A stretch of 896 nt of DNA from Escherichia coli (GCF_003334765.1 NZ_QOWT01000094.1), one strand, 5' to 3'. Positions 1 through 896 are shown, numbered from the stretch's first letter. Program-made: numbers and translations. Notes: generated by a model not told the origin, from the sequence alone.

Positions 1-18
1 GGTTTAATGCGCCCCGTT

Positions 19-94
19 GCCCGGATAGCTCAGTCGGTAGAGCAGGGGATTGAAAATCCCCGTGTCCTTGGTTCGATTCCGAGTCCGGGCACCA
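19..94 (+). tRNA. pheV: tRNA-Phe (anticodon GAA), complete 76 nt with encoded 3' CCA; enterobacterial pheV/pheU type
   Basis: Read directly: GCCCGGATAGCTCAGTCGGTAGAGCAGGGGATTGAAAATCCCCGTGTCCTTGGTTCGATTCCGAGTCCGGGCACCA. The 7-bp acceptor stem GCCCGGA/TCCGGGC pairs, the D-loop has AGCTCAGTCGGTAGAGC, the anticodon loop is flanked by stem GGGGA/TCCCC with GAA at 52..54, and the T-arm has GGTTCGATTCC. From memory this matches E. coli tRNA-Phe. pheV and pheU are identical in sequence, so the symbol is ambiguous between the two loci. Confidence 0.95.
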
Positions 95-105
95 AATTCA
101 TATCA

Positions 106-131
106 ACGGACCTCCACGGAGGTCCGTTTTT
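106..131 (+). terminator. Rho-independent terminator of the tRNA-Phe transcript
   Basis: A perfect GC-rich inverted repeat, CGGACCTC (107..114) pairing with GAGGTCCG (119..126) around a 4-nt loop, is followed immediately by TTTTT (127..131). It lies 12 nt downstream of the tRNA 3' CCA. Confidence 0.7.
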
Positions 132-137
132 CATTCC

Positions 138-161
138 AGGACGCCACGATTTAAGCGTCCT
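138..161. repeat. Inverted repeat (7-bp arms, 10-nt spacer) in the tRNA-integrase intergenic region; possible protein-binding site or RNA hairpin
   Basis: AGGACGC (138..144) and GCGTCCT (155..161) are exact reverse complements separated by CACGATTTAA. No T-tract follows, so it is not a typical intrinsic terminator. Confidence 0.35.
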
Positions 162-223
162 GCCTCCAAATCAATTCTACCGAACTCAACCAGATTCCCC
201 CCACATCAACCTCATTGTGTGGG

Positions 224-229
224 TATAAT
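224..229 (+). promoter_or_regulatory. Candidate sigma70 -10 hexamer (TATAAT) for the integrase gene
   Basis: A perfect TATAAT at 224..229 lies about 62 nt upstream of the integrase ATG. No convincing TTGACA-like -35 is seen at 17-bp spacing (CCACAT at 201..206 is a poor match). The call rests on the -10 element only. Confidence 0.3.
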
Positions 230-280
230 TGTGGGCATACCCCAGTTCGACAGAATTTGTACCCTCTTTAACGCATTCAG

Positions 281-285
281 AAGGC
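281..285 (+). promoter_or_regulatory. Ribosome-binding site (Shine-Dalgarno-like AAGG) for the integrase
   Basis: AAGG at 281..284 sits 7 nt upstream of the ATG at 292, which is acceptable SD spacing. Confidence 0.5.
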
Positions 286-291
286 TGAACT

Positions 292-896
292 ATGGCACTG
301 ACTGACGCAAAAATCCGGGCAGCAAAGCCTACTGACAAGGCTTATAAACTCACTGACGGGGCTGGCATGTTCCTGCTGGTACATCCTAATGGTTCCCGTT
401 ACTGGCGTCTCCGTTATCGTATTCTGGGTAAGGAGAAGACTCTGGCACTTGGTGTGTATCCAGAAGTTTCTCTCTCCGAAGCTCGTACAAAACGGGATGA
501 GGCCCGAAAACTGATTTCAGAGGGGATTGACCCTTGCGAACAGAAAAGAGTTAAAAAAGTAGTCCCTGATTTACAGCTCTCTTTTGAACATATTGCACGA
601 CGCTGGCATGCCAGTAATAAACAATGGGCACAATCACACAGCGATAAAGTACTCAAAAGCCTCGAGACACACGTTTTCCCCTTTATCGGCAACCGGGATA
701 TCACAACACTCAATACCCCGGACCTGCTTATCCCTGTTCGTGCTGCAGAAGCAAAACAAATTTATGAAATCGCTAGTCGTCTGCAGCAAAGAATATCTGC
801 TGTAATGCGTTACGCCGTACAGTCTGGCATCATCAGATATAACCCGGCTCTGGATATGGCTGGTGCATTGACCACGGTAAAACGCCAGCATCGCCC
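292..896 (+). CDS. int: Site-specific tyrosine recombinase, P4-type integrase (phage integrase family), N-terminal ~201 aa; 3'-partial, continues beyond the window
   Basis: Hand translation in frame 1 from ATG 292 has no stop through 896: MALTDAKIRAAKPTDKAYKLTDGAGMFLLVHPNGSRYWRLRYRILGKEKTLALGVYPEVSLSEARTKRDEARKLISEGIDPCEQKRV...ARRWHASNKQWAQSHSDKVLKSLETHVFPFIGNRDITTLNTPDLLIPVRAAEAKQIYEIASRLQQRISAVMRYAVQSGIIRYNPALDMAGALTTVKRQHR. The N-terminus (LTDxxIRAAKP...Y.L.DG.G.L.V...GS..W...YR) is the hallmark arm-binding domain of P4-like integrases such as the E. coli CP4-57 IntA type; the Y..R.R motif (YWRLRYR) and the SLS.AR and RLQQR...MRYAV segments also fit that family. Position directly downstream of a tRNA gene on the same strand is the canonical arrangement. 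The ORF is missing from the supplied track, most likely because it has no stop inside the window. Confidence 0.9.
   Translation, partial: MALTDAKIRAAKPTDKAYKLTDGAGMFLLVHPNGSRYWRLRYRILGKEKTLALGVYPEVSLSEARTKRDEARKLISEGIDPCEQKRVKKVVPDLQLSFEHIARRWHASNKQWAQSHSDKVLKSLETHVFPFIGNRDITTLNTPDLLIPVRAAEAKQIYEIASRLQQRISAVMRYAVQSGIIRYNPALDMAGALTTVKRQHR

Follow-up and report, generated by a model that had tools for sequence, protein, structure and literature searches.

The 896-nt stretch of DNA analysed here (the window) is, with a probability of roughly 93%, attL, the left junction of a genomic island that is integrated in a tRNA-Phe gene of E. coli. In the proposed mechanism, the P4-family integrase encoded beside the junction would once have recombined the attP site of the element with the final 23 nt of the tRNA gene, and because the element brings its own copy of this 23-nt stretch, the tRNA gene remains intact. 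Element DNA would then start at window position 95 and run, in order, through a replacement terminator hairpin, tandem 12-nt repeats over the likely int promoter, and int itself, and the cargo would lie beyond the window (110 kb in strain 55989) and close at attR, where the tRNA 3′ end recurs in imperfect form. What was observed directly is the anatomy of the junction, the boundaries of the insertion, the cargo, the existence of an empty site and the polymorphism among genomes. The window is a textbook island junction with little significance alone, and it serves as a signpost to the DNA that flanks it rather than as a discovery.

The window and its tRNA-Phe gene

Many complete E. coli chromosomes contain all 896 nucleotides without a difference, among them those of 55989, UMNK88 and the O104:H4 lineage of the 2011 outbreak; the 100% identity to 55989 was confirmed by string comparison. 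The features of the window are collected in Table 1.

Table 1. Features along the window, in window coordinates
Feature	Position	Strand	Basis
Chromosomal flank upstream of the tRNA	1–18	+	Identical at K-12 pheV and K-12 pheU (alignments)
tRNA-Phe(GAA) gene, complete, encoded CCA (pheV or pheU)	19–94	+	ARAGORN, Rfam RF00005, identity to K-12
attL core, the final 23 nt of the tRNA, TTCGATTCCGAGTCCGGGCACCA	72–94	+	Copy at the distal boundary of the island
Island-borne left arm (P′ arm of attL)	95–291	+	Starts at the point where the match to the empty pheV site of K-12 stops
Perfect hairpin followed by a T-run, resembling an intrinsic terminator	105–128	+	Terminator scan, repeat finder, fold
Second inverted repeat, perfect 8 bp, CAGGACGC / GCGTCCTG, 10-nt loop	137–162	+	Repeat finder
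Two tandem 12-nt direct repeats, TGTGGGTATAAT / TGTGGGCATACC, candidate arm-type Int sites	218–241	+	Repeat finder, 12-nt spacing
intP4 (P4-family tyrosine integrase), first 201 of 420 codons, runs off the window	292–896	+	Open frame, Pfam, identity to P4 Int

ARAGORN identified a single tRNA gene in the window, a tRNA-Phe with the anticodon GAA at 19–94 on the + strand, and the Rfam tRNA model (RF00005) matched the same interval with 68.3 bits (E = 1.3e-14). The gene is complete with an encoded CCA and, in alignments, the same base for base as K-12 pheV and pheU, so that the complete tRNA-Phe described in an earlier note on this DNA was borne out. A permissive Rfam scan of the window found no RNA besides tRNA-Phe; an 18.7-bit antisense match to a plastid RNA family in that scan was regarded as noise. 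Other open reading frames of the window (20–99 aa) were dismissed as well, as they overlap the tRNA, run antisense to int, or lie out of the int frame.

The integrase

The open reading frame that follows on the strand of the tRNA begins with an ATG at position 292, has the sequence AAGG at 281–284 ahead of the start, and remains open for 201 codons up to the window edge. The gap between the end of the tRNA and this ATG is 197 nt. According to the annotation, the full-length integrase is a protein of 420 aa (WP_001218809.1) in all of the sampled genomes that match the window exactly. The Pfam domains Arm-DNA-bind_3 (PF13356, residues 3–86, E = 1.9e-29) and Phage_int_M (PF22022, residues 98–192, the central domain) are encoded inside the window, and Phage_integrase (PF00589, residues 211–383), the tyrosine-recombinase catalytic domain, is encoded outside it. 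An NCBIfam scan gave one match only, to a domain model and below the cutoff (251 bits vs 434), which is uninformative.

Over 410 aa, the integrase shares 55% identity with phage P4 Int (E = 2e-175). Its motifs RSSELR, GHGFR, SHQERN and AAYIH align with those of P4 Int, and the Arg/His/Arg/Tyr active-site motifs are present. Judged by its sequence, the protein is a member of the P4-family tyrosine integrases, with the arm-binding domain, the catalytic motifs and the full-length similarity of the family all found. The earlier note had described a co-oriented P4-type integrase about 200 bp after the tRNA, which is accurate in strand, distance and kinship; the words P4-type integrase hold as a tested statement because of the 55% identity to P4 Int together with the aligned motifs of the catalytic region. 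In terms of allele, the gene falls within the intP4.5 group (less than 1% divergence, a group that includes 55989) over the part that can be compared, its first 605 nt.

Boundaries of the island and the empty site

The limits of the insertion were read from a three-way alignment, in which the window follows K-12 pheV through the terminal A of the tRNA (position 94) and is unrelated to it beyond. In 55989, identity to K-12 resumes after a 22-nt repeat, which gives an inserted segment of 110,434 bp. This repeat is the attR core, TTCGATTCCGAGTCCGG-CACCA, the 3′ end of the tRNA minus one G (3,450,329–3,450,350 of the record). It reads TTCGATTCCGAGTCCGGCACCA, that is, the 23-mer with one G deleted (L003 40330–40351), and it is followed by the sequence found downstream of pheV in K-12 and then by yghD. 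A mismatch-only search downstream in 55989 for the 23-nt tRNA 3′ end, at 3 mismatches or fewer, returned no copy; attR was located by reading the sequence before yghD, and it differs from the 23-mer by the 1-nt deletion. In K-12 MG1655, the order is yqgA-pheV-yghD with no insert and with 148 nt between the tRNA and yghD. The 55989 locus is pheV because the tRNA there comes after yqgA.

The steps that the earlier note had proposed all led to the outcome that it anticipated: extension downstream along 55989 uncovered about 110 kb of accessory genes behind the integrase, the far boundary in that genome is marked by the tRNA 3′ end in a second copy (22 nt, one G missing), and the pheV site of K-12 provides the island-free reference. 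The cargo and the far boundary assigned to the window were derived from genomes with the identical 896-nt stretch. An intact tRNA at the boundary, an adjacent integrase, an attR (in the window-identical 55989) and an empty site elsewhere were all found. In 55989, they are joined by a mosaic accessory cargo, mobile-element debris and an atypical composition; the GC content of the island is 48.1% compared with 51.6% and 56.1% in the flanks, and it falls to a trough of 39.6% over the aai T6SS.

The deletion in the attR core has a bearing on the mobility of the element. Defects of this kind can greatly reduce excision (discussion in PMC11537424), and in its own lineage the 55989-type island, with its 1-nt deletion in the attR core, may therefore be fixed in effect. 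Competence for excision at the present day is an inference.

The left arm between the tRNA and int

The interval between the tRNA and the integrase contains two stem structures and one pair of direct repeats. The hairpin at 105–128 has 10 pairs (6 of them G-C), a loop of 4 and the tail TTTTCATTCC in the terminator scan, with TTTTC after the hairpin, and perfect 11-nt arms (105–115 and 118–128) in the output of the repeat finder. Its fold has an energy of −17.6 kcal/mol (z = −5.0). The native pheV terminator hairpin, AACCCGCC...GGCGGGTTTTT, is located after attR in 55989 and after pheV in K-12. Because the insertion displaced this native terminator by about 110 kb, we infer that the hairpin at 105–128 is a substitute, a terminator for the tRNA transcript that is supplied by the island. 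The second inverted repeat, at 137–162, folds with −13.1 kcal/mol (z = −4.5), and the remnant at K-12 pheU keeps this repeat with a mismatch in one arm.

By analogy, the tandem repeats at 218–241 are probably binding sites for the N-terminal arm domain of Int. A TATAAT hexamer lies inside the first of them at 224–229, with no recognisable −35 element, and it could, again by analogy, possibly be the int promoter. The promoter scan reported no sigma-70 promoter that reached its thresholds anywhere in the window, and the hexamer is for this reason weak evidence of a promoter. In 55989, a second pair of repeats, TGCGGGTATAAT / TGAGGGTACATT, is found 52 nt before the attR core, and 123 nt separate the int-proximal pair from the core. 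The scan for arm repeats allowed 2 mismatches, and at 2 mismatches or fewer the background is 0.6 hits per kb. An inverted third arm repeat at 197–208 (CCCCCCACATCA) was considered by reading; it departs from the repeat consensus at 3 positions and is not claimed.

This arrangement resembles that of phage P4, in which the annotated arm repeats of attP are tandem 12-mers, TTGGGGGCATAA / TTGGGGGCATCT, located just upstream of int. The distances from the arm repeats to the core at the two ends are 123 and 52 nt for the island compared with 112 and 53 nt for P4. Since pairs of arm repeats flank the core on both sides at P4-like distances, the island retains a complete P4-style att architecture. 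The two elements are also alike in their integration in a tRNA 3′ end, in their integrases, and in the possession of a Vis-like gene. They differ in the core, as the annotated attP core of P4, GAGTCCGGCCTTCGGCACCA, is not the tRNA-Phe 3′ end used by the island, and in the repeat consensus, which is TGTGGGYATA for the island and GGGGGCAYA for P4.

Cargo behind the integrase

In 55989, the cargo comprises an ietHAS and type III R-M operon, pic, two T6SS clusters, Ag43 and a CbtA/CbeA toxin-antitoxin pair. After a few small open reading frames, the operon opens the island with five genes that PADLOC models identified as a DrmD-like SNF2 helicase, IetA, IetS, and the type III Mod and Res proteins (L001 23765–34528, 3.5–14.5 kb beyond the window). 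The intergenic gaps within it are 2–25 nt. The trio of SNF2 helicase, IetA and IetS has been validated as ietHAS, with the helicase mutations K65A and D165A (NAR 2026, gkag308); the IetH-like helicase of 55989 has its Walker A lysine at Lys65 and the aspartate of its DEAH motif at Asp165, a numbering that matches the residues mutated in that study. RM III and ietAS have also been reported to co-localise in E. coli (bioRxiv 10.1101/2022.08.21.504612), and we found no literature test of ietHAS and the type III Mod/Res genes, all five together, as one unit. It is rather improbable that the five genes form one integrated defence system, and the same holds, as a separate matter, for undescribed cargo in the genome from which the window itself comes.

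The enteroaggregative virulence genes of 55989 come after the defence operon. They include pic, the aai T6SS (aaiC) and a second T6SS with Tle1/Tli1. Fragments of IS3, IS30, IS66, IS110, IS4, IS630 and IS1 are present in the island, with IS debris behind the defence operon. A group II intron reverse transcriptase/maturase gene, ltrA, lies just beyond pic and before the aai T6SS (L002 6117–7625), and an AL1L frameshift pseudoknot is annotated in an IS fragment between pic and the aai T6SS (L002 8640–8755). The earlier note had placed the cargo outside the window and expected virulence and anti-phage genes in it, and both kinds occur in the accessory DNA of 55989.

The full 420-aa integrase is followed by accessory genes in all seven of the sampled exact-match genomes, and in six of the seven the cargo opens with the ietHAS and type III R-M operon. 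The DNA behind an intP4.5-type allele thus usually begins with this module in the sampled genomes. UMNK88, which has an identical integrase protein, carries a different cargo that includes a restriction endonuclease and a PLD anti-phage protein (L005 25156–32896) together with anti-phage-associated DUF1156 and DUF3780 proteins. Because the cargo of UMNK88 differs from that of 55989, the same integrase allele carries at least two different defence modules. Taken as a marker, an intact tRNA-Phe followed by intP4 reliably indicates tens of kilobases of accessory DNA.

Relation to published islands at pheV

The island is already known, having been published and mapped as 55989_GI-pheV, with a length of 110,510 bp (3,339,841–3,450,350) and the attR TTCGATTCCGAGTCCGG-CACCA (Nhu et al. 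2024, PLoS Genet 20:e1011459, PMC11537424, Table 1). All 896 bases of the window, the start, the end and attR are the same in that island, and the boundaries were derived independently here; the published length counts from the start of the tRNA, in contrast to the inserted segment of 110,434 bp given above. In that study, intP4 is the only conserved gene of GI-pheV, five alleles of it are defined, and 55989_GI-pheV, with pic, T6SS and a gene for a helicase, is given as typical of intP4.5 (PMC11537424). Its first cargo genes are listed there only as a "putative DNA helicase" (PMC11537424), and they resolve here to ietHAS and type III R-M. Copies of the island at pheV show no differences from the window, which is likewise indistinguishable from pheU copies of the same module. 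There is nothing new in the window, and the statement of the earlier note that nothing in it is itself novel was correct.

The islands OI-122 / SpLE3 of O157:H7, also at pheV, use the same site and integrase family, have a junction that is 97.6% identical at the nucleotide level, and are mosaic and IS-rich. Their cargo differs and includes espL2, nleB, nleE and efa1/lifA fragments. They carry a different allele, intP4.4, and most copies of the island are without attR (PMC11537424).

Alternative origins of the junction

An intact-looking junction could in principle be an old scar, and K-12 provides an example of one. Between pheU and cadC of K-12 MG1655 (L009 2436–3051, minus strand) there is a decayed copy of the left arm of the island, in which window 95–208 is nearly identical, including the terminator-like hairpin, and the remainder to about 320 is degenerate; the integrase start codon reads ATA in place of ATG, and the copy is followed by the yjdQ pseudogene and then by cadC. 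This decayed left arm means that K-12 bears the scar of a lost pheU island, which shares the left-arm sequence and its hairpin with the window but has its integrase destroyed and its cargo gone. It corresponds to the remnant that the earlier note had put forward as its counter-case. That the window is itself a fixed integrase remnant without cargo is hardly credible, as its reading frame begins with an intact ATG and stays open for 201 codons, the seven sampled exact-match genomes all continue into a complete integrase and accessory genes, and the arrangement is polymorphic among genomes and not universal. The yqgA-pheV-integrase junction was found in 3,055 of 5,426 complete E. coli genomes, and the empty yqgA-pheV-yghD site in 1,509 of the same 5,426. 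The occupied fraction (56%) is in line with the approximately 52% of PMC11537424, in which 1,242 of the 2,382 complete genomes screened were GI-pheV-positive. As the counter-case to its own proposal, the earlier note had named an arrangement that is fixed in all relatives and lacks both cargo and the tRNA 3′-end repeat; because the pheV junction is occupied in some genomes and empty in others, this scenario does not describe the locus. A P4-like satellite prophage (int, alpha primase, sid/psu/delta and a defence hotspot) in place of a large pathogenicity island is also very unlikely, although the integrase, the att architecture and the Vis-like gene each resemble their P4 counterparts. When all 13 P4 proteins were compared by tblastn with the 110.5-kb island of 55989, the matches were int and vis only, and alpha, sid, psu, delta, epsilon and cI were absent from the island. 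The element measures 110 kb compared with 11.6 kb for P4, and no P4 genes are annotated downstream in any of the seven sampled exact-match genomes. Since only int and the Vis-like gene resemble P4, the element is not a P4 satellite; it is a pathogenicity/defence island. The earlier note had spoken of pathogenicity islands and P4-like satellites at pheV/pheU, and the former half of that expectation stands while the latter does not. The Vis-like helix-turn-helix gene (34% identity to P4 Vis over 82 aa by tblastn, approximately 3,434,154–3,434,396 of the record) is a candidate for the recombination directionality factor of the 55989 island; P4 Vis is the excisionase. It encodes 68 aa and lies about 94 kb into the island (L003 24206–24412, 3,434,205–3,434,411 of the record).

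With the window read as the left junction of a pathogenicity/defence island, the alternative concerning its chromosomal site is that it comes from pheU, where the same kind of island would have been inserted by the same mechanism, possibly with a different distal cargo. The two loci share the 18-nt flank and the tRNA without a difference, and in the strains TW10690 and H3 the same 896 bases come after dicD, which places them at pheU; the locus is for these reasons unassignable from the window alone. The earlier note was right to name a tRNA-Phe site, pheV/pheU, and the window does not permit narrowing to one of the two. An origin at pheU is nevertheless unlikely, and pheV is very probably the locus of the window. 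Among the exact-match genomes whose flank was examined, 6 of 8 have the sequence at pheV (after yqgA) and 2 of 8 at pheU (after dicD), and in the O104:H4/55989 lineage, which is dominant among these matches, the site is pheV. With 3,055 genomes at pheV and 1,319 at pheU, the integrase type is over twice as frequent at the former; with 3,397 genomes that have it at either site, inclusion-exclusion gives approximately 980 genomes with both. The pheU copies fit the use of both identical tRNA-Phe genes by one integrase, or recombination between islands.

In TW10690, the window sequence at pheU (L006 16001–16896) is followed by the same ietHAS and RM III module. Few matches fall outside the pheU and pheV loci; one of them is a 69-nt match to window 140–208 with 97.1% identity, at 94171–94239 of NZ_CP048307.1, an E. 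coli record of 94 kb. It lies at the very end of this record, in a stretch annotated as uvrA.
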